In this document: piece by piece, positions 1 to 26,685 of the stretch
How positions within the stretch are numbered: position 1 is the stretch's first letter
Layout of the letters: each line of letters opens with the position of its first letter
Made by a program: the position numbers and the translations under genes
Notes under the pieces: generated by a model
Databases searched by the model: none
What the model was told of the DNA's origin: nothing
The model's input: the letters and a program-made list of their open reading frames with translations, nothing else
NCBI RefSeq assembly: GCF_003334305.1
Contig: NZ_QOWS01000003.1
Reading direction: 5' to 3' (one strand)
DNA length: 64,000 nt
From: Escherichia coli
GTDB taxonomy: Bacteria > Pseudomonadota > Gammaproteobacteria > Enterobacterales > Enterobacteriaceae

Positions 1-698
1 ACGCCATCGGCATCCATTGGCGCAACGAACATCAGTGCGAAGTCCGGGTTTTCGCCCATTACTTGTGCCGAGCCGAAGCCAATCATGTTGTAGTGAGTCA
101 GCGCCGAGTTGGTGGCAACCACTTTCGCACCGCTAACGATAATCCCGGCGTCAGTCTCTTTTTCCAGCTTGATGTAAACGTCTTTCACTTTATCGGTCGG
201 CAAATGACGATCGATCGGTGGGTTAACAATCGCGTGGTTAAAGTAGAGGCCAGTTTCCTGAATACGGGTGTACCAGTTACGGGCGTTCTGCTCGAACTGA
301 CCGTAAAAGCCCGGATTCGCGCCCAGTGCGCAACCGAAAGCAGCTTTGTAGTCTGGGGTACGGCCCATCCAGCCATAGCTCAGGCGTGACCATTCAGCGA
401 TGGCGTCGCGTTGCTGGCGCAGGTCGTCGGCACTTTTCGCCACGCGGAAGAATTTATGGGTATAGCCGCCGCTGCCGGTGTCGGTGTTCCAACACAGAGA
501 GTCCTGCATCTCCGGTTTGTGCAGCGCGTCGTACAGTTGGGCAACAGACGCTGCCGCATTACGAAATGCCGGATGAGTGGTGACGTCTTTCACTCGCTCG
601 CCATAGATATAGATCTCGCGACCATCCTGCAGGCTTTTCAGATACTCTTCCCCGGTGAAAGGACGTTGGGTACTGGCGCGGAAATCTTCTGGTTTCAT
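1..698 (-). CDS. hpaB: 4-hydroxyphenylacetate 3-monooxygenase, oxygenase component (partial; N-terminal about 232 codons, gene continues beyond window start)
   Basis: Minus-strand translation from ATG at 698 gives MKPEDFRASTQRPFTGEEYLKSLQDGREIYIYGERVKD..., matching HpaB from memory; open to position 1; absent from ORF track because truncated by window edge. Confidence 0.85.
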   Translation of the reverse strand, partial: MKPEDFRASTQRPFTGEEYLKSLQDGREIYIYGERVKDVTTHPAFRNAAASVAQLYDALHKPEMQDSLCWNTDTGSGGYTHKFFRVAKSADDLRQQRDAIAEWSRLSYGWMGRTPDYKAAFGCALGANPGFYGQFEQNARNWYTRIQETGLYFNHAIVNPPIDRHLPTDKVKDVYIKLEKETDAGIIVSGAKVVATNSALTHYNMIGFGSAQVMGENPDFALMFVAPMDADG

Positions 699-948
699 GT
701 CGACCTCTACAGTATTAATCGGAATACGATTGTTAATTTTGTGTGTTGTTTTTGTTATTTAATTGAAGCTTGCAGGGGCGATTACGGGAAGACACTTTTG
801 GGACAATGGCTGGTACTTTTCAGGTCGGGTACGGTTTTGTGATCGAGGTCGCTTTTAGCGATTTTTAACGTTACTAAATCCCCTTGCTCCAGGCGGAGAA
901 AGGGGAATAGCAGGTGGTGCCTGGTTTCCCGTTAAGGCTAAGGGATTT

Positions 949-1839
949 TCACGTCACAGGTACTTTTTTGGCACGATAAGCACTGGGCGAGCAACCGACT
1001 AAGCGATTAAAAAAGCGCGCAAAATAAGCCGGATCTTTAAAACCGAGTTGCCAGGCAATATTGTTCACGGCGTTATCAGAAAACAGCAGCAGCCGCTTGG
1101 CTTCTCGTAGCTGCCTGTCGAAAATCAACCGTTTTGGCGGACGGTTGGCAAAGCGGCGGCAGATGTCCGTGAGTCGTGATTCGGTGATATGCAGTTCGTT
1201 AGCGTAATCCGGTACTGTCCAGTGCTGATGAAAATGGCTTTCAATCAGCATATTAAAACGCTGGAACAGTTTTAATTCTCCGCGCATCCCGCTGGCGGCA
1301 TGGTCGTCGAGTTTTGCATTACGCAGCAGTAGGGTGAACACTGCCTGTGCCAGTAGCGTCAGGGTGTGTTCCCGTCCAGGCAGTTGTTCCACCGATTCCC
1401 GCTCTATCAGTTGCCAATAGTGTTCCAGCGCCGCCAGTTCGTCGGGTTTATCTGCCAGTGACAGGCAAATCCCCGGCAGGCCGAAGGTTTCCCGAGTGCC
1501 TGGATAAAGAACTTCCAGCAGGGGCCAGATCAGATCTTCCCGTACCGTCAACACATGACCGTCGGCGTCAGACTCCGTAATAAACGCATGAGGTACTGAC
1601 GGTGGCGTCAGGACAAACAGGGGCGCTTCCACCGAGTAGCGATGATCGTCAAGCTGTAGCTCAATCTGTCCGCTATTGAGGAAATGCATCTGAAAGTACT
1701 GTTCGTGGCGATGTGGCAGCATATGGCGGCCAAAAAAGGCCGCCATGCGGGCGAACGACTGATAATGCACATCGTCCGTGCCCAGGCTTTCATCGTACTC
1801 TTTGCTGATATCAATATTGGCAATCTGACGGTCACACAT
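949..1839 (-). CDS. hpaA: AraC/XylS-family transcriptional activator of hpaBC
   Basis: 296-aa ORF; C-terminal AraC-type HTH (…ANELHITESRLTDICRRF…); position between hpaX and hpaB as in described hpa clusters. Confidence 0.85.
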   Translation of the reverse strand: MCDRQIANIDISKEYDESLGTDDVHYQSFARMAAFFGRHMLPHRHEQYFQMHFLNSGQIELQLDDHRYSVEAPLFVLTPPSVPHAFITESDADGHVLTVREDLIWPLLEVLYPGTRETFGLPGICLSLADKPDELAALEHYWQLIERESVEQLPGREHTLTLLAQAVFTLLLRNAKLDDHAASGMRGELKLFQRFNMLIESHFHQHWTVPDYANELHITESRLTDICRRFANRPPKRLIFDRQLREAKRLLLFSDNAVNNIAWQLGFKDPAYFARFFNRLVGCSPSAYRAKKVPVT

Positions 1840-1848
1840 CGTCGTTCC

Positions 1849-3225
1849 TTACGGGGTCGCTCGCGGACGGGAGGACTGCATTGGAATCGCCCAGATAATC
1901 CCCGCACCAATCACCAGCAGCGCGGCAACAAACCACAATCCACTGTTAAAGCTGCCGGTCAGATCTTTCAACCAGCCGATCATAAACGGACTTAACGCTG
2001 AACCAATGTTGCCAGTGGCGTTGATCACCGCAATACCGATCGCTCGTGCCCGCAGGCTGATGGACTGATCCGGTGTTGTCCAGAAAATCGCCATTGCGCT
2101 GAATGATCCGGTCGAAGCCATAATGATCCCCAGCATCTGGATCATGTTGTGATCAGTTGCCGAAGCCAGTAACCAACCTGCGGCAGCGAACAAATAAGGA
2201 AGGGCGGTGTGATGCCTTCGTTCCTGGCGGCGATCTGAGTGACGGCTCCAGTAGACCATCCCGAGAATGGTACAAATCTGCGGTACGGCGGCCAGCAGGC
2301 CGATGGTGATATTACTGCTGCCCTGATTAAAACTTTGCAGGATCTGCGGTGTCCAGATGCTGATCGCACTAAGTGTGTTGGTCAGGCAGAAATACGCCAG
2401 GGTATACATCATCACCACCGGAGTGAAGATCTCCCGCCACATACTGCGTTGTTGCATGGCGTGGTGGCTGATGGCTCCCTCTGGCTGAACCAGCGTCAGA
2501 CGATCGTTATCCATCATCTCTTGCAGGCATTTTTTGTCTTCTTTCGTCAGCCACTTAGCTTTGTCCGGTGAGTCATCAAGCCAGAACCACACCATGACGC
2601 CGAGTAATACCGACGGGAAGCCTTCCAGCAAAAACAGCCACTGCCAGCCTTTTAATGCCATTACGCCATCCAGCGACAAAATGTAGCCGGAAACGAGCGA
2701 TCCCAACGCTGTCGTTACCGGCATTGCAACCATAAACAAGGCGTTGGCACGGGCGCGGAAATAGGCCGGAAACCAGAAGGTTAAATACAGCAGAATGCCA
2801 GGCAGAAAGCCGGCTTCGGTAATGCCAACCAGTATACGCAGTACGTACAAGCTGGTGGGGCCAGTGGCAAACATGGTGGCAGTAGAGGCGATGCCCCAGA
2901 GCACCATGATGGTGGCGATCCAGCGCCGCGCACCGACAATACTCAGCATAATGTTGCTGGGAATGCCGAAGATGACATAAGCGGCATAGAACAGGGTGGT
3001 AGCGAGGCCAAACATGGTGGCGCTCAGACCGAGGTCGCGTCCCATCGTGAGTCCGGCAAAGCCGATGTTGATGCGATCAAGGAACGAGAAGATAAACAGC
3101 ACGAACAGAAAGACGATCAGGCGGCGAAATAGCTTCTTAATAACCGCCTGTTGTCCGGCAGTCAGCGCTTTATGCTGATTCGCCGGATCGATACTCTCCG
3201 GTATGGCAGGTGAGGTGTCGCTCAT
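1849..3225 (-). CDS. hpaX: 4-hydroxyphenylacetate permease, MFS transporter
   Basis: Multi-helix hydrophobic ORF; internal ATG at 3225 (MSDTSPAIPE…) gives about 458 aa with GAGGAAG ribosome-binding site upstream; ORF-track start is an upstream in-frame extension. Confidence 0.8.
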   Translation of the reverse strand: MSDTSPAIPESIDPANQHKALTAGQQAVIKKLFRRLIVFLFVLFIFSFLDRINIGFAGLTMGRDLGLSATMFGLATTLFYAAYVIFGIPSNIMLSIVGARRWIATIMVLWGIASTATMFATGPTSLYVLRILVGITEAGFLPGILLYLTFWFPAYFRARANALFMVAMPVTTALGSLVSGYILSLDGVMALKGWQWLFLLEGFPSVLLGVMVWFWLDDSPDKAKWLTKEDKKCLQEMMDNDRLTLVQPEGAISHHAMQQRSMWREIFTPVVMMYTLAYFCLTNTLSAISIWTPQILQSFNQGSSNITIGLLAAVPQICTILGMVYWSRHSDRRQERRHHTALPYLFAAAGWLLASATDHNMIQMLGIIMASTGSFSAMAIFWTTPDQSISLRARAIGIAVINATGNIGSALSPFMIGWLKDLTGSFNSGLWFVAALLVIGAGIIWAIPMQSSRPRATP

Positions 3226-3267
3226 TTTTCTTCCTCTAATGGGATTTTTGTAGGGTACGACAAGGTT

Positions 3268-3399
<132 letters not shown>

Positions 3400-3400
<1 letters not shown>

Positions 3401-4188
3401 TAATACACGCCGGGCTTCACGGCGGTGGCCTGCGCACCAAACCGTGCTGCCAGCGCTTCAGCGGCGCGGGCGAGCAGGGTGGTGTCAACGCCGACGGCGA
3501 CAAACAGCGCGCCCAGTTCCAGATAGCGTTTTGCCAGTTGCTCATTGGCGATCAGGATCCCCGGCGCTTTGCCCGCTTCGCGGATCTGCACGATCGCCTG
3601 CTCAATGGCGGCCTGTACTTCCGGGTGCTGCGGATTACCGGCATAACCCATATCGGCGCTCAGATCCGCCGGGCCGATAAACACGCCGTCGACCCCTTCC
3701 ACGTCCAGAATCTGCGGTAAGTTCTTCATTGCCTCACGCGTTTCGATCTGCACCAGCACGCACATTTGATCGTTGGCTTTTTGCAGGTAATCAGGAATGC
3801 GATTCCAGCGCGAGGCACGGGCCAGCGCACTGCCCACACCGCGAATACCGGCGGGGGGATAACGGGTGGCGCGTACCGCTTCACGGGCTTCGTCAGCGTT
3901 TTGAACCATCGGCACCAGTAAGGTTTGTGTGCCGACGTCCAGCAGTTGTTTGATTTGCACCGGATCGTTCCACGACGGACGTACTACCGGCTGGCTGGGG
4001 TAGGGCGCAATCGCCTGTAGCTGGGTGAGCACGGTTTGCACGTTATTCGGCGCGTGCTCACCGTCGATCAATAACCAGTCGAATCCTGCTCCGGCCAGTA
4101 ACTCTGCGCTGTAGCTGCTACTTAGCCCCAGCCATAATCCGATCTGCGGGCGGCCTGCTTTCAGCGCCGCTTTAAAACTGTTTTCCAT
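3400..4188 (-). CDS. hpaI: 2,4-dihydroxyhept-2-ene-1,7-dioate aldolase
   Basis: ATG at 4188 ([19 protein letters not shown]…) gives 262 aa; ORF-track start at 4329 is an upstream extension overlapping hpaH. Confidence 0.85.
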
Positions 4189-19880: not shown

Positions 19881-20354
19881 TTATACGCGAGGGCGCTTGC
19901 GGTACAACCATAATCCAGGAATGGAAAGACCGATGGATAACGCACCAACAATCGATGAAGCTGTAAGAAAGTTGGTTAACAGGGTAATCATCAACGGTTC
20001 GCTGTAACCTAACTGGCTGATTTTTACCGCCGAAATCATTGCGGTATAAGCCGATATGCCCGGGAACATAGGGATAACGGCCGCCACGGTAAACACTTTC
20101 GGATGCGCCAGATACCAGCGCGACCATTGAATACCAATGGTGCCGACCAGCATAGAAGCCATAAAGGTTGACCACTCAATATTCAGCCCGCTGGTCATTA
20201 AGATCATTCGTGAACCATGACCAATCGCGCCAAGCAGCGCACACCAGCGTAATGCCCGAACGGGAACGTTGAACACCATCGCAAAGCCGACCGCTGGAAT
20301 GGCGGCGAGGATCATATCCTGCGCCAATGCAAACAGAAACTCGATCACACCCAT
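19881..20354 (-). CDS. yjjB: inner-membrane protein of ThrE-family exporter pair
   Basis: 157 aa from [12 protein letters not shown]…; overlaps yjjP stop by 10 nt. Confidence 0.85.
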
Positions 20355-21115
20355 CCGCGTAGCCCCCAAATCGTCAGTGCCATCACCACGCCGACGCAGG
20401 TAGCCAGTGTCAGCAGACTGGCGATCGCCCAGCGTGCCAGTCCGGTATTGATGTGGCCTTTAAACATATCGGCGACGGCATTTATCAACGGAAATCCCGG
20501 CACCAGCAGCAGAACGCTGGCGGCCATCGCAATGGTGGGTGTATTGCTGAAGGTGGGAAGTTGCAAAAGCAAACCGGAAATAGTGGTGGCGGCGAAAGCG
20601 GTGAGGCAAAAGTTGATCTGTGGATGAAGATGACGTTGTGCCAGTAGCTGGCGGATATACATCGCGGCCGTACTGGCAAAGAAGGTGATGACGGCACCAT
20701 CCCAGCCACCTTTATTGAGTTTACAGAAACAGGCGCAGGAAAGGCCAACCATTAAGGCTACCAGCCATCTTGGGTAACGTAATGGCTGAATTTGGCTAAA
20801 TCGTTTCTCTACGCCTTTGTAATCCAGCAGATGGTGCTCCGCCAGAATCACAATGTGCTGGACTTCAGTCACCACATGCATATTAATGCCGCGATCGTGA
20901 TTTTTACGTGTCGATGTCAGGCATTGCCCATCTTTAATGGTTGTCAGCACTATGGCGTTCGAAGAGATAGAACTTTCAACGCTGTCCATTCCCAGCGCCC
21001 GACCCAGTCGTGAGGAAAGCTCATCAACCAACGCGCTTTCCGCACCATGTTGCAGAAGAAATAATCCACACTGGATACAAAGCCGTGTTACGGCTCGCTG
21101 TTGCTCAGTTTGCAT
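20345..21115 (-). CDS. yjjP: inner-membrane protein, DUF1212/ThrE family
   Basis: 256 aa from [12 protein letters not shown]…; ORF-track start at 21178 is an upstream extension. Confidence 0.8.
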
Positions 21116-21733
21116 AACTCGCCCTTTGTCATAGACGTGCTGCGTATTGTTCAGATAATGAGAATCCATTTGTATCATGAAGCACGGTTGTTTTGCGGTA
21201 GGTTAAGATCAAAATTGCGCTGATTAATCCTGGTTATCGGGACAAGCTCGGTGATAAAAAGCGAATTATCTCTCGCCGCAAACAAACTATCACATGAATA
21301 TTATCACTATAATGAATTTATTGTTTGGCCTTTACGAATTAGGATAATAGATAACCGGGCACGTTTTTTAATGTTAACAAGTTAAAACCATCAGATTTCA
21401 TTGAATAAATATTGGTTGTGTGATTTTTCATTCTGCGGGAAGGGATATCATTTAATTATAAATTAAATGAATGTGATTTCTGTTTTTCATTAAGTATTCC
21501 TAACAACTTAATGTAGATATTTTAAATGTCTCCAGGCTATTTCACCAGGTTATCATTTGATGCTAACCTTCTGACACATGCAGTGGAGTTGTTGTGCAGC
21601 AGGAGTATGCTGATATGAAAGTGAATGCTAAGGATAATTTATTCGCTTAATCTATTAATTTGCTGGAAACATTTAAGGAATGAATATCCTGAATAAACCA
21701 TCATGATTTTTAGACAGTGGATGTGGAGGAAAT
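21116..21733. promoter_or_regulatory. AT-rich divergent control region between yjjP and yjjQ-bglJ
   Basis: 618 bp strongly AT-rich with many A/T tracts; the yjjQ-bglJ locus is a known H-NS-silenced, LeuO-activated locus. Confidence 0.6.
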
Positions 21734-22459
21734 ATGTTGCCAGGATGCTGCAAAAATGGAATTGTTATCAGTAAAATACCTGTTATGCAAGCAGGGTTAA
21801 AAGAGGTCATGAGGACTCACTTCCCTGAATATGAAATAATATCCAGCGCCTCTGCGGAGGACCTTACCTTATTACAATTACGTCGTTCCGGATTAGTCAT
21901 TGCTGATTTAGCCGGTGAAAGTGAAGATCCTCGTTCTGTTTGTGAACATTATTATTCTTTAATCTCACAATATCGGGAAATTCACTGGGTTTTCATGGTG
22001 TCACGCTCCTGGTATTCCCAGGCAGTAGAATTGCTCATGTGCCCTACGGCGACGTTATTGTCTGATGTTGAACCCATTGAGAATCTGGTCAAGACCGTAC
22101 GTTCCGGCAATACGCACGCAGAGCGTATCAGCGCCATGCTGACCTCTCCGGCAATGAATGAAACTCATGATTTTAGCTATCGCTCCGTCATTCTCACTCT
22201 TTCAGAGCGCAAGGTACTGCGGCTATTAGGTAAAGGATGGGGCATCAACCAGATAGCTTCGTTGCTTAAGAAAAGTAATAAAACTATCAGCGCCCAAAAA
22301 AACAGTGCGATGCGTCGACTGGCAATTCACAGCAACGCTGAAATGTATGCATGGATAAATAGCGCGCAGGGTGCAAGAGAACTTAACTTGCCTTCTGTTT
22401 ATGGAGATGCCGCAGAATGGAACACAGCCGAATTAAGAAGAGAAATGTCGCACTCATAG
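21734..22459 (+). CDS. yjjQ: LuxR/FixJ-type transcriptional regulator
   Basis: 241-aa ORF with C-terminal LuxR HTH (…[23 protein letters not shown]…). Confidence 0.9.
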
Positions 22460-23094
22460 AAAAATGCGTCATGAGCAGTATCGGTATTGAGAGTTTATTC
22501 AGAAAGTTTGCGGGTAACCCTTATAAGCTCCATACCTATACCAGTCAGGAGTCATTTCAGGATGCCATGTCGCGGATCTCATTTGCGGCGGTCATTTTTT
22601 CTTTTTCTGCCATGAGAAGTGAGCGCAGAGAGGGATTATCTTGCCTGACTGAACTGGCGATTAAGTTTCCGCGTACCCGGCGTTTAGTTATTGCGGATGA
22701 TGATATTGAAGCTCGGCTGATTGGTTCATTGTCGCCATCACCGCTGGACGGTGTATTAAGTAAAGCGTCAACGCTGGAGATTTTTCATCAGGAACTCTTT
22801 TTGTCATTAAATGGTGTACGTCAGGCGACCGACCGACTGAACAATCAGTGGTACATTAACCAAAGCCGGACGCTAAGCCCGACGGAGAGAGAAATATTGC
22901 GCTTTATGTCGCGTGGCTACTCAATGACACAAATTGCCGAGCAGCTTAAACGCAATATCAAAACGATCCGTGCACATAAATTTAATGTGATGTCGAAACT
23001 GGGCGTCAGTTCTGATGCAGGGTTGTTGGAGGCCGCAGATATTCTGTTATGTATGCGGCATTGCGAAGCAAGTAATGTGTTGCATCCCTATTAA
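22417..23094 (+). CDS. bglJ: LuxR-type transcriptional activator of bgl
   Basis: 225-aa ORF; start overlaps yjjQ 3-prime end by 43 nt; C-terminal LuxR HTH. Confidence 0.9.
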
Positions 23095-23131
23095 TCCGCA
23101 TGATGCCGGGTTTACTTCCCCGGCAGTGCTT

Positions 23132-23920
23132 TCATTTCAGCGTACAATCGCCACATTGCTGCACATCCGGTAAGCGATAACGCTGGCAGCAGGTCCGGCG
23201 CACCAGCAGGCCGTCGCGTAGCACCACGGTACGCCAGAGTGGATTATCTTCACCGGTAGTAAGCGTTTTCTCAAAAAAGAGGGCATGGCGCAGCGATTCA
23301 ACCGTCGCCTCGCCGAGCAGTTGCTTCATCTCAGTAAGATACCAGTTGATCAAATAACCGGTATTACTCCAGATAAGTTTGCCGTTGATCTCTCCGGTCG
23401 CTTCTAGTGCCTGCACAACCGGAACCAGCGCCTGGCTGATTAACCTTTCCATTCGCTGCTGCGGCGAATGTGGTGTTGCGTTTTTATCTTCACACACATC
23501 GACCCAGAAACAGGCGGCACGGCCGGTTTCGTGAAACTCAGCATGGAAATGTTCCGGCGACACATCTAATGCCTTTTCCTGCGTCAGTAGCGCCAGCATT
23601 AATGGTGGCACCATCAGGCCGATATACCATTGTGCCCATAGTGAGATCAGCGGTTTGTTCTCGCGGATCATCGTTGGTTGGTTGCGATAGATATGATCGG
23701 AATAGACCGCGAGTAGAGAACTTAGCGCATTCGGTGATGACCATTGCGCCAGCGTCATGGCGTTAAGCGGAGCGGGTTCATCCAGGCGGATAAACTCCAG
23801 CAAATGTTCACGATGTTCGGCGATCGTCGCACGTACGGCTTGTGCAAGCCCAGCATCCTGTGGCTGGAGATGCGTTCGCCAGATAACATCTTCATAGAGC
23901 GGTGCGGAACGATAGGCCAT
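23132..23920 (-). CDS. fhuF: ferric-siderophore reductase (2Fe-2S)
   Basis: 262-aa ORF ending in C-C-x10-C-x2-C cysteine cluster. Confidence 0.9.
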   Translation of the reverse strand: MAYRSAPLYEDVIWRTHLQPQDAGLAQAVRATIAEHREHLLEFIRLDEPAPLNAMTLAQWSSPNALSSLLAVYSDHIYRNQPTMIRENKPLISLWAQWYIGLMVPPLMLALLTQEKALDVSPEHFHAEFHETGRAACFWVDVCEDKNATPHSPQQRMERLISQALVPVVQALEATGEINGKLIWSNTGYLINWYLTEMKQLLGEATVESLRHALFFEKTLTTGEDNPLWRTVVLRDGLLVRRTCCQRYRLPDVQQCGDCTLK

Positions 23921-24335: not shown

Positions 24336-24422
24336 TGGTGCGAGGGGGGGGACTTGAACCCCCACGTCCGTAAGGACACTAACACCTGAAGCTAGCGCGT
24401 CTACCAATTCCGCCACCTTCGC
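24336..24422 (-). tRNA. leuV: tRNA-Leu (anticodon CAG)
   Basis: Reverse complement reads GCGAAGGTGGCGGAATTGGTAGACGCGCTAGCTTCAGGTGTTAGTGTCCTTACGGACGTGGGGGTTCAAGTCCCCCCCCTCGCACCA, 87 nt with long variable arm and encoded CCA. Confidence 0.92.
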
Positions 24423-24463
24423 ATACCATCAATTCTTAAAAAGAATTGCTACCACGGAGGCGC

Positions 24464-24491
24464 ATTCTAGTGGTTTTCAGCTTTTCGTCAA
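24464..24491 (-). promoter_or_regulatory. Sigma-70 promoter for tRNA-Leu
   Basis: On minus strand TTGACG-N16-TAGAAT followed by GC-rich discriminator GCGCCTCC, with A/T-rich UP-like sequence upstream; typical stringently controlled stable-RNA promoter. Confidence 0.6.
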
Positions 24492-24547
24492 TAGTTAATT
24501 ATCGCCGGAGGTGTAATTGCTGGAAAAATGTCCATCAGGAAACTAGC

Positions 24548-24710
<163 letters not shown>

Positions 24711-24722
24711 TCGGCGGGATAC

Positions 24723-25754
24723 TTAACCTTTCTTCGCCTGGCGGGTCATAATGGCGCGATACACCTTGAAGCGCCCGGTTTGCGCGATAACTTCATGGAA
24801 GCCAAATGTCTCATCCAGCACGTCCGGGTAAGGCAGGAAGGCGTTCGCTACAATTCGCAGCTCGCCGCCGCTATTAAGATGACGCACCGCGCCGCGAATC
24901 AGCGTTTGCGCCGCATCCAGGCTGGTTTGCATCCCATCGTGGAACGGCGGGTTGGAGATGATCATATCAAAACGACCTTTCACCTCGGAAAAGACGTTGC
25001 TGGCAAAGACTTCACCTTCAACACAGTTGGCCGCAAGTGTTGCGCGGCTGGCTTCTACCGCTGGCGCAGAGACATCGCACAAGGTGAGACGAATTTTCGG
25101 CGAATGGCGCGCAAAGGCAACTGAAAGCACCCCCGCGCCACAGCCGACATCCAGCACTTTACCTTTCGTGTGCGGAGTTAACGTCGAGAGCAGCAACTGG
25201 CTACCGACATCCAGACCGTCGCGGCTAAACACGCCAGGCAGCGTTTTGACCGTCAGGCCATCGACGCTGTATTCGCCCCAGAATTTATCGGCATCAAATA
25301 CCGGCTGTTTTTCCAGACGACCAAAATAGAGGCCACAGCGACGAGCGCTGTCGACTTTATTCAACGGCGCATAATCTGCCAGCATCTGCTCGGCGCTGCG
25401 CACGCCGCTGCGGTTCTCGCCAACGACAAAAATATCCGTCCCCACCGGCAGCAGAGAAAGTAAATTCATCAACTGGAACTGGGCTTCCGGTTTGTTCTTC
25501 GGCCAGTAGTAAATCAGCGTATCGCAATCTGCGACGTCATCCGCCGTGGCGACCAGACTGAAACGGGCGTTATCCCCCATCTGGCGGCTTAATACCTGCC
25601 AGTGGTGGAATTGCTGGGTATGAGCACGGCTGGCCGCGGTATCTAAACGCGCGGGCAGGTCATCCTGTAAGTCTCCGGCAAACAGAATACGGCTTTGTTC
25701 GAAATCATCACTGTGACGCAGCAAGACTTCACTTGCCGGGGTAAATGCAGACAT
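24723..25754 (-). CDS. rsmC: 16S rRNA (guanine1207-N2)-methyltransferase
   Basis: 343-aa ORF with SAM-binding motif (…[12 protein letters not shown]…NPPFH…). Confidence 0.9.
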
Positions 25755-25856
25755 GGAATGCTCCTCAATTGATACTGGCGGCGATTATAGCCATATGTTG
25801 GCGCGGTATCGACGAATTTGCTATATTTGCGCCCCTGACAACAGGAGCGATTCGCT

Positions 25857-26270
25857 ATGACATCCCGACGAGACTGGCAGTTACAGCAACTGGGCATTAC
25901 CCAGTGGTCGCTGCGTCGCCCTGGCGCGTTGCAGGGGGAGATTGCCATTGCGATCCCGGCACACGTCCGTCTGGTGATGGTGGCAAACGATCTTCCCGCC
26001 CTGACTGATCCTTTAGTGAGCGATGTTCTGCGCGCATTAACCGTCAGCCCCGACCAGGTGCTGCAACTGACGCCAGAAAAAATCGCGATGCTGCCGCAAG
26101 GCAGTCGCTGCAACAGCTGGCGGTTGGGTACTGACGAACCGCTATCACTGGAAGGCGCTCAGGTGGCATCACCGGCGCTCACCGATTTACGGGCAAACCC
26201 AACGGCACGCGCCGCGTTATGGCAACAAATTTGCACATATGAACACGATTTCTTCCCTCGAAACGACTGA
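25857..26270 (+). CDS. holD: DNA polymerase III psi subunit
   Basis: 137-aa ORF MTSRRDWQLQQLGITQWSLRRP…. Confidence 0.9.
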   Translation: MTSRRDWQLQQLGITQWSLRRPGALQGEIAIAIPAHVRLVMVANDLPALTDPLVSDVLRALTVSPDQVLQLTPEKIAMLPQGSRCNSWRLGTDEPLSLEGAQVASPALTDLRANPTARAALWQQICTYEHDFFPRND

Positions 26271-26685
26271 TTTACCGGCGGCTTACCACATTGAACAACG
26301 CGCCCACGCCTTTCCGTGGAGTGAAAAAACCTTTGCCAGCAACCAGGGCGAGCGTTATCTCAACTTTCAGTTAACGCAAAACGGCAAAATGGCGGCGTTT
26401 GCGATTACGCAAGTGGTGCTGGATGAAGCTACATTGTTCAATATTGCGGTCGATCCTGACTATCAGCGTCAGGGATTGGGAAGGGCGCTGCTGGAACATC
26501 TGATCGACGAACTGGAAAAACGCGGCGTGGCGACACTATGGCTGGAAGTCCGTGCTTCAAACGCTGCCGCCATTGCCCTGTACGAAAGTTTAGGCTTTAA
26601 CGAGGCGACGATTCGCCGCAATTACTACCCCACCACGGACGGTCGCGAAGACGCCATCATCATGGCGTTGCCAATCAGTATGTAA
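26239..26685 (+). CDS. rimI: ribosomal protein S18 alanine N-acetyltransferase (GNAT)
   Basis: 148-aa GNAT ORF overlapping holD 3-prime end by 32 nt. Confidence 0.9.

Follow-up and report, generated by a model that had tools for sequence, protein, structure and literature searches.

The reading that best explains the region as a whole, and one that we regard as very probable, is a silenced divergent spacer next to a co-transcribed pair of genes, yjjQ and bglJ, with bglJ starting inside yjjQ at ATG 22417 on a Shine-Dalgarno sequence of its own. The divergent promoters of the 618-bp AT-rich spacer between yjjP and yjjQ would be kept silent by H-NS (with StpA) and could be derepressed by LeuO, and yjjQ and bglJ would be transcribed together from the spacer promoter. 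Translation of bglJ would begin at ATG 22417 using UAUGGAGA, which is written into the yjjQ codons Tyr-Gly-Asp, and initiation there would be mainly independent of yjjQ translation, any coupling being modest. For the operon status, and for repression by H-NS and activation by LeuO, we rely on the literature and not on this analysis; the locus, its H-NS/LeuO control and its operon structure are already published, and the overlap is already annotated in RefSeq. The new content is modest: comparative and structure-model evidence that confirms the start of a 225-amino-acid BglJ and that of a 256-amino-acid YjjP, and a discrepancy between this BglJ and the 207-position NCBI model of the family.

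The region is the chromosomal yjjP / yjjQ-bglJ locus of E. coli and lies in a 64-kb stretch of DNA, here denoted the window. Positions 20300-23200 are 100% identical to E. coli strain A7 and 98.6% identical, over 2.9 kb, to K-12 RV308. Of 5,426 complete E. coli genomes, 5,425 contain the yjjP / yjjQ-bglJ region, and in 5,076 of 5,421 E. coli genomes the yjjQ/bglJ junction has an identity of 99% or more. RefSeq annotation of A7, whose coordinates equal those of the window up to ~24.4 kb, gives yjjB, yjjP (minus strand), yjjQ (plus), bglJ (plus) and fhuF (minus), and the layout of K-12 RV308 is the same; the order is dnaC-dnaT-yjjB-yjjP, then yjjQ-bglJ, then fhuF. The open reading frames of the window and their start and stop codons agree with this annotation. 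A sequence-only reading of this DNA had given a 618-bp spacer, a 43-nt out-of-frame overlap and a bglJ start at 22417, and all three numbers match the open reading frames as well as the RefSeq records of A7 and RV308. The locus is the one described in K-12 (Stratmann 2008): its genes, their order, the spacer and the overlap are all the same, and only strain-level SNPs set it apart. The features referred to below are the following.

20345-21115, minus strand: yjjP coding sequence, 256 amino acids, ThrE-family membrane protein, divergent from yjjQ (open reading frame and RefSeq).
21116-21733, no strand: yjjP-yjjQ spacer, 618 bp, AT-rich divergent control region, GC 0.34.
21116-21265 (approximate), no strand: local patch of 11-bp AA/TT periodicity at the yjjP end of the spacer, possible intrinsic bend.
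21462-21490, minus strand: predicted sigma-70 promoter of yjjP, ATGAAA-17-TTTAAT, a string from PMC3946193 with a unique match in the window.
21610-21638, plus strand: predicted sigma-70 promoter of yjjQ-bglJ, CTGATA-17-GATAAT, from a promoter scan and identical to the prediction in PMC3946193.
21723-21727, plus strand: yjjQ Shine-Dalgarno sequence GGAGG, invariant in 13 species, anti-Shine-Dalgarno duplex -9.3 kcal/mol.
21734-22459, plus strand: yjjQ coding sequence, 241 amino acids (open reading frame and RefSeq).
22400-22407, plus strand: bglJ Shine-Dalgarno sequence UAUGGAGA, inside the yjjQ codons Tyr-Gly-Asp/Glu, invariant in 26 loci.
22417-23094, plus strand: bglJ coding sequence, 225 amino acids, start ATG 22417, receiver-like domain and GerE helix-turn-helix (HTH).
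22417-22459, plus strand: yjjQ/bglJ coding overlap, 43 nt, bglJ frame offset by 2.
22471-22473, plus strand: internal Met19 ATG of bglJ, ~11-12 nt 3' of the yjjQ stop, an alternative start judged not to be the main start.
23098-23129, plus strand: likely operon terminator between bglJ and the convergent fhuF, a stable hairpin with a U-rich stretch behind it.

The start of bglJ was examined by comparing 26 orthologous yjjQ/bglJ junctions from several species. The bglJ open frame has no start codon ahead of ATG 22417, and both this ATG and the Met19 ATG at 22471 are present in 26 of 26 loci. The length of the overlap differs among these loci: 43 nt for Escherichia, 40 nt for both Citrobacter and Intestinirhabdus, 52 nt for S. 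arizonae. Across BglJ codons 10-18 all nine third positions vary among the 26 loci, but of the 18 first and second positions only three do (Fisher p = 4.7e-5); the 11 nt not shared with yjjQ again show, in the bglJ frame, 4/4 variable third positions against 2/7 first and second ones. This codon-position pattern indicates that translation in the bglJ frame begins upstream of Asn10. At the protein level the peptide NVAL[IVL]EKC is invariant in the 26 loci while being encoded by several different synonymous codons; translated in the yjjQ frame, these nucleotides give residue changes (M/T, S/L, H/R/L, S/L/W), and the last ~5 YjjQ residues vary non-synonymously between species.

The nucleotides in front of ATG 22417 are conserved beyond what the yjjQ frame shows elsewhere in the same stretch. 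Nine of the 11 yjjQ third-codon positions in 22384-22416 vary, and the two that are invariant (22402 and 22405) both fall inside UAUGGAGA. The A of ATG 22417, where a change would be silent in yjjQ (GAA/GAG), does not vary in the 26 loci either. Pairing with the anti-Shine-Dalgarno sequence amounts to -6.4 kcal/mol for ATG 22417 versus +0.2 for Met19; the distance from the Shine-Dalgarno sequence to the ATG, 9-10 nt, is rather long. Taken together with the structure model described below, the comparative evidence and the Shine-Dalgarno sequence back a bglJ start inside yjjQ, as the sequence-only reading had placed it, and indicate that the annotated internal start at ATG 22417 is right, for a predicted BglJ of 225 amino acids. 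A literature search for bglJ together with ribosome profiling or start-site mapping returned no such paper.

The same comparison suggests how the overlap may have arisen. The last ~14 residues of YjjQ would be an unconstrained tail, and the overlap would exist because this tail runs on to the first stop in its frame. That stop (TAG) would be fixed by BglJ codons Ile/Val14-Glu15; in S. arizonae codon 14 is GTC, the TAG is lost and yjjQ extends to a TGA overlapping the Met19 codon. Over the 3' part of the coding overlap, selection would act on the BglJ frame, residues 9-14 probably forming β1 of the receiver-like domain. Most bacterial same-strand overlaps measure 1 or 4 nt, a geometry tied to termination-reinitiation coupling. 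The same-strand overlaps in the 50 kb examined measure 4, 10, 43, 32, 4 and 29 nt, so that the yjjQ/bglJ overlap is the longest of them and yet no outlier: in holD/rimI (32 nt) and yjjW/yjjI (29 nt), in the same window, the downstream gene likewise begins, in a different frame, tens of nt before the upstream gene ends.

Both proteins carry a LuxR-type HTH (Pfam GerE, PF00196), at residues 152-203 of BglJ (2.4e-12) and at residues 153-206 of YjjQ (1.1e-07), in keeping with the earlier description of the two as a LuxR-family pair. Searches of BglJ by sequence only (phmmer against the PDB, and Pfam) detected the HTH alone and no receiver-like domain, and therefore the receiver-like domain had to be sought in a structure model. 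The AlphaFold model, built on 24 orthologues, is of moderate confidence (pLDDT 74.8, with lower values for residues 1-4 and 17-21). It predicts a (βα)5 domain whose first strand, β1, spans residues 9-14, and places the HTH after this domain. Its strands (E) and helices (H) are E9-14, H24-30, E36-41, H44-51 and E58-62 in the first half, and H67-83, E88-93, H96-105, E112-115 and H120-132 in the second. The best PDB matches of the model are full-length RcsB (E 4.9e-10, 213 aligned columns, TM 0.67-0.75). The closest known proteins are RcsB and its auxiliary partners of the FixJ/NarL (LuxR) type, RcsA and BglJ itself: BglJ combines a GerE HTH with a receiver-like N-terminus, and the model superposes on full-length RcsB. 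BglJ is, however, only ~21% identical to RcsB and reportedly lacks the phospho-acceptor Asp, a residue that receivers have at the end of β3 (PMC3950696). The predicted fold agrees with the literature, in which the N-terminal domain of BglJ is described as receiver-related and an alignment suggests the absence of that Asp (PMC3950696).

The sequence-only reading had held that the overlap implies translational coupling or internal initiation. Of these two, internal initiation at the gene's own Shine-Dalgarno sequence is favoured by our data, and coupling, which may occur, is not indicated, no masking structure being found. Under an obligatory form of coupling, bglJ would be translated only together with yjjQ, either by unmasking of its ribosome-binding site or by ribosomes scanning back 43 nt from the yjjQ stop at 22459. 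Such a dependence would fit the presence of yjjQ and bglJ in one operon and the retention of the overlap in kind (40, 43 and 52 nt) over ~35% protein divergence, and ribosomes that have terminated are able to start again at start codons close by, upstream or downstream, as in the scanning model attributed to Adhin and van Duin (1990). The RNA of the junction argues otherwise. As a single sequence, the 121-nt junction folds less stably than its shuffles (z = +1.55), the consensus fold over 18 species reaches only -3.2 kcal/mol with compensatory pairs at 1/17, and the mean unpaired probability of the region from the bglJ Shine-Dalgarno sequence to the ATG is about average. No stable or conserved RNA structure therefore covers the bglJ ribosome-binding site with its Shine-Dalgarno sequence and ATG, and coupling by structure unmasking is unsupported. 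The geometry of termination-reinitiation is likewise absent, the yjjQ stop lying 43 nt downstream of the bglJ ATG (40-52 nt in relatives) in place of the usual 1-4 nt, and bglJ keeps a selected Shine-Dalgarno sequence of its own. In addition, functional BglJ is made from plasmids that carry bglJ only and from an allele with a miniTn10 insertion upstream of bglJ (PMC3950696), which argues against obligatory coupling and is compatible with some coupling, the ribosome-binding sites of these constructs not being detailed. Weighing these points, we consider obligatory coupling unlikely, and mainly independent initiation at ATG 22417 the better description of bglJ translation.

A second alternative is that BglJ starts at Met19 (22471), in which case there would be no true coding overlap and the annotated start would be an artefact. 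Several observations lend themselves to this reading: the Met19 ATG is invariant in the 26 loci; in S. arizonae the yjjQ stop overlaps it as TGATG, the classic coupling geometry; the 207 positions of the NCBIfam BglJ model NF008548 align to residues 19-225, so that the model was built on the Met19 start; and PGAP calls a BglJ of 207 amino acids in a strain where IS911 splits the yjjQ/bglJ junction. The nine codons upstream of Met19, on the other hand, show strict period-3 substitution in the bglJ frame, even outside yjjQ, and the NVAL[IVL]EKC peptide that they include is invariant. Met19 has no Shine-Dalgarno sequence (the +0.2 kcal/mol given above), a protein starting there would lose β1 of the receiver-like sheet, and its conservation can be explained simply as that of an internal residue. 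We regard a Met19 start as very improbable.

Dual initiation at 22417 and 22471, with full-length BglJ accompanied by a β1-less isoform fed by ribosomes that terminate yjjQ, is equally improbable: both ATGs are invariant and the distance from the yjjQ stop to Met19 is a constant 11 nt in 25 of 26 loci, with the TGATG overlap in S. arizonae, but this constancy follows automatically from protein-level conservation of codons 15-18, Met19 again has no Shine-Dalgarno sequence, a truncated receiver-like domain would, judging from the model, be unlikely to fold, and the literature search gave no experimental hint of it. If dual initiation were true, a BglJ variant would be tied to YjjQ output through reinitiation.

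With a start at ATG 22417, NF008548, with its 207 positions and Met19 start, is inconsistent with a BglJ of 225 amino acids and could propagate truncated calls. The BglJ-RcsB and LeuO feedback circuit controls bgl, leuO and other loci, and the exact N-terminus of BglJ matters for the building of constructs. Beyond such housekeeping the significance is small, the locus being ordinary and already known.

Upstream of yjjQ, the spacer has a GC content of 0.341, compared with 0.524 on average over the window (sd 0.043 among 618-bp windows). Nowhere in the 64 kb does a stretch of this size have a lower GC; equally low values are reached in only 0.3% of 618-bp windows, all of which overlap the spacer. 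The AT-richness is real and not due to chance, and the AT-content profile upholds what had been noted from the letters. The GC contents of yjjQ (0.448) and bglJ (0.454) are both under the window average as well. A long AT-rich spacer between yjjP and yjjQ is kept in relatives, namely other Escherichia species, the Citrobacter freundii group and Salmonella arizonae, where it measures 438-704 bp with a GC of 0.33-0.41 versus ~0.47-0.52 for the locus. During adaptation of E. coli to the gut of mice the spacer is a recurrent target of IS insertion (PMC5094792; PMC7064181).

The length of 618 bp depends on the 256-amino-acid start of yjjP. An alternative, longer yjjP open reading frame exists in E. 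coli, starting at ATG 21178 and encoding 277 amino acids, which would shorten the spacer to 555 bp. The start at 21115 (ATGCAAAC...) is conserved among relatives. Several Citrobacter species carry in-frame stops within the extension of the 277-amino-acid form, and Escherichia sp. E1V33 has a frameshift there; the 618-bp figure therefore stands. Stratmann 2008 reportedly counts an intergenic region of 555 bp, a number that would fit the 277-amino-acid open reading frame.

The silencing of the locus by H-NS, which the sequence-only reading had deduced from the AT-rich spacer, agrees with published work. For the yjjQ-bglJ operon, H-NS acts as repressor and LeuO as activator (PMC5025477, citing Stratmann, Madhusudan and Schnetz 2008, J Bacteriol 190:926), and both kinds of control are stated for yjjQ-bglJ and the divergent yjjP (PMC5025477; PMC3950696; PMC2646131). 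The bglJ gene is H-NS-repressed, with expression of the operon expected in a Δhns stpA background (PMC3950696), and it is silent under laboratory conditions (PMC2646131). Moreover, the RpoD genomic SELEX table of Shimada et al. flags 'HNS' in the yjjP/yjjQ spacer (PMC3946193). The bgl operon and leuO resemble this locus in having AT-rich regulatory DNA, in being silent in the laboratory and in being derepressed in hns stpA, and all three belong to the same LeuO/BglJ-RcsB feedback circuit; unlike bgl and leuO, the yjjQ-bglJ locus has divergent promoters and encodes the regulators themselves.

The same SELEX table lists predicted promoters for both directions, ATGAAA-17-TTTAAT for yjjP and CTGATA-17-GATAAT for yjjQ-bglJ (PMC3946193). 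In our alignment the predicted -10 of yjjQ sits in a block, AAGGATAA, that is conserved across genera. A generic sigma-70 scan of the DNA returned 8 sites versus 5.7 +/- 2.7 in shuffles, which is no enrichment, and we report only the site that coincides with the PMC3946193 prediction and the conserved block (21610-21638).

Phased A/T tracts had also been named as a sign of H-NS silencing, and this part of the claim is borne out only weakly, for one stretch of the spacer. Taken over its full length, the spacer has an AA/TT spectral power (10-11.5 bp band) that 236 of 1000 dinucleotide-preserving shuffles reach, which is not significant, and it holds 9 A/T runs of at least 4, fewer than the shuffles (11.4 +/- 2.4). 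In a sliding-window test, the periodicity of the 150-bp patch beside yjjP (21116-21265) was matched by 1 of 300 shuffled spacers. Among the 150-bp windows of the 64 kb this patch ranks within the top 0.1% (0.06-0.7% depending on window size), and a patch as strong is present in 2-10% of 618-bp blocks. Phasing of the spacer is local and modest at best; as evidence the phased tracts are weak, and the conclusion of H-NS silencing does not need them. The 10-mer TCGATAAATT, which we take to be the published high-affinity motif of H-NS, matches the spacer twice with at most 2 mismatches versus 2.0 matches expected from shuffles, a count that equals the expectation from composition and is uninformative.

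An Rfam scan of 20900-23300 on both strands (E <= 1) gave no match, and hence no known RNA element in the spacer or the junction. At the downstream end of the operon, the hairpin at 23098-23129 folds with -17.8 kcal/mol (z = -3.4), a stability equalled in 1 of 200 shuffles, and this hairpin is likely a terminator of the yjjQ-bglJ operon, a plausible role given its U-rich stretch and its position ahead of the convergent fhuF.

The NCBIfam model NF008548, denoted 'DNA-binding transcriptional activator BglJ', comprises 207 positions, of which the first corresponds to Met19, and covers BglJ residues 19-225 (window 22471-23094). The Met19 start of this model conflicts with the 225-amino-acid RefSeq coding sequence and with the comparative evidence, which favors the upstream start. 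In E. coli 19KM2326N, an IS911 element is located exactly at the yjjQ/bglJ junction (2575-3844 of the comparison locus), and at this split junction PGAP calls a 207-amino-acid BglJ starting at Met19. Two other long overlaps lie near yjjQ/bglJ in the window:

26475-26506, same-strand overlap of holD and rimI, 32 nt
33501-33529, same-strand overlap of yjjW and yjjI, 29 nt

Two versions of the yjjP ORF were compared. The 277-amino-acid version, starting at ATG 21178, is not conserved; in Citrobacter and in Escherichia sp. E1V33, its extension (21116-21178) contains stop codons in frame or is frameshifted. Because the extension is interrupted in these relatives, the true yjjP start is that of the 256-amino-acid version, at 21115.

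During evolution of E. coli in the mouse gut, the yjjP/yjjQ spacer (window 21116-21733) is a repeated, adaptive target of insertion sequences, for example IS2, with yjjP expression ~2 fold higher (PMC5094792; PMC7064181). In addition, we observed that in E. coli PS3Tanimalfeces2 an IS1 (2280-3029 of the comparison locus) has taken the place of the entire spacer, of yjjQ and of the 5' portion of bglJ. The bglJ gene of this strain, lacking its N-terminus, is annotated as a pseudogene.

Amino acid identity between the E. coli window and Citrobacter is ~62-74% for yjjQ and bglJ, compared with ~90% for the flanking yjjP and ~75-80% for fhuF (L007-L026, comparison loci from other genomes). Across these loci yjjQ and bglJ diverge much faster than their flanking genes. 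The layout of the locus varies as well. In the Citrobacter amalonaticus/sedlakii group and in Intestinirhabdus (L012, L021 and L023-L026, ~440-3050), a yjjP-yjjQ gap of ~2.6 kb with ordinary GC content stands in place of the AT-rich spacer of 0.4-0.7 kb; therefore, one or more extra genes have presumably been inserted between yjjP and yjjQ. The C. freundii group carries ~2.2 kb of additional DNA between bglJ and fhuF.

A low-coverage contig of 436 bp labelled Streptomyces sp. DH24 (L027) encodes BglJ residues 113-225 with 100% identity, and this fragment is almost certainly E. coli contamination within the Streptomyces assembly.

The window carries one copy of tRNA-Leu(CAG) (24336-24422), whereas the otherwise identical strain A7 carries three in tandem (24336-24658). 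Either two of the tandem copies have genuinely been lost, or the repeat collapsed during assembly. The rsmC gene is located at 24723-25754 in the window and at 24959-25990 in A7, that is, 236 nt earlier in the window.
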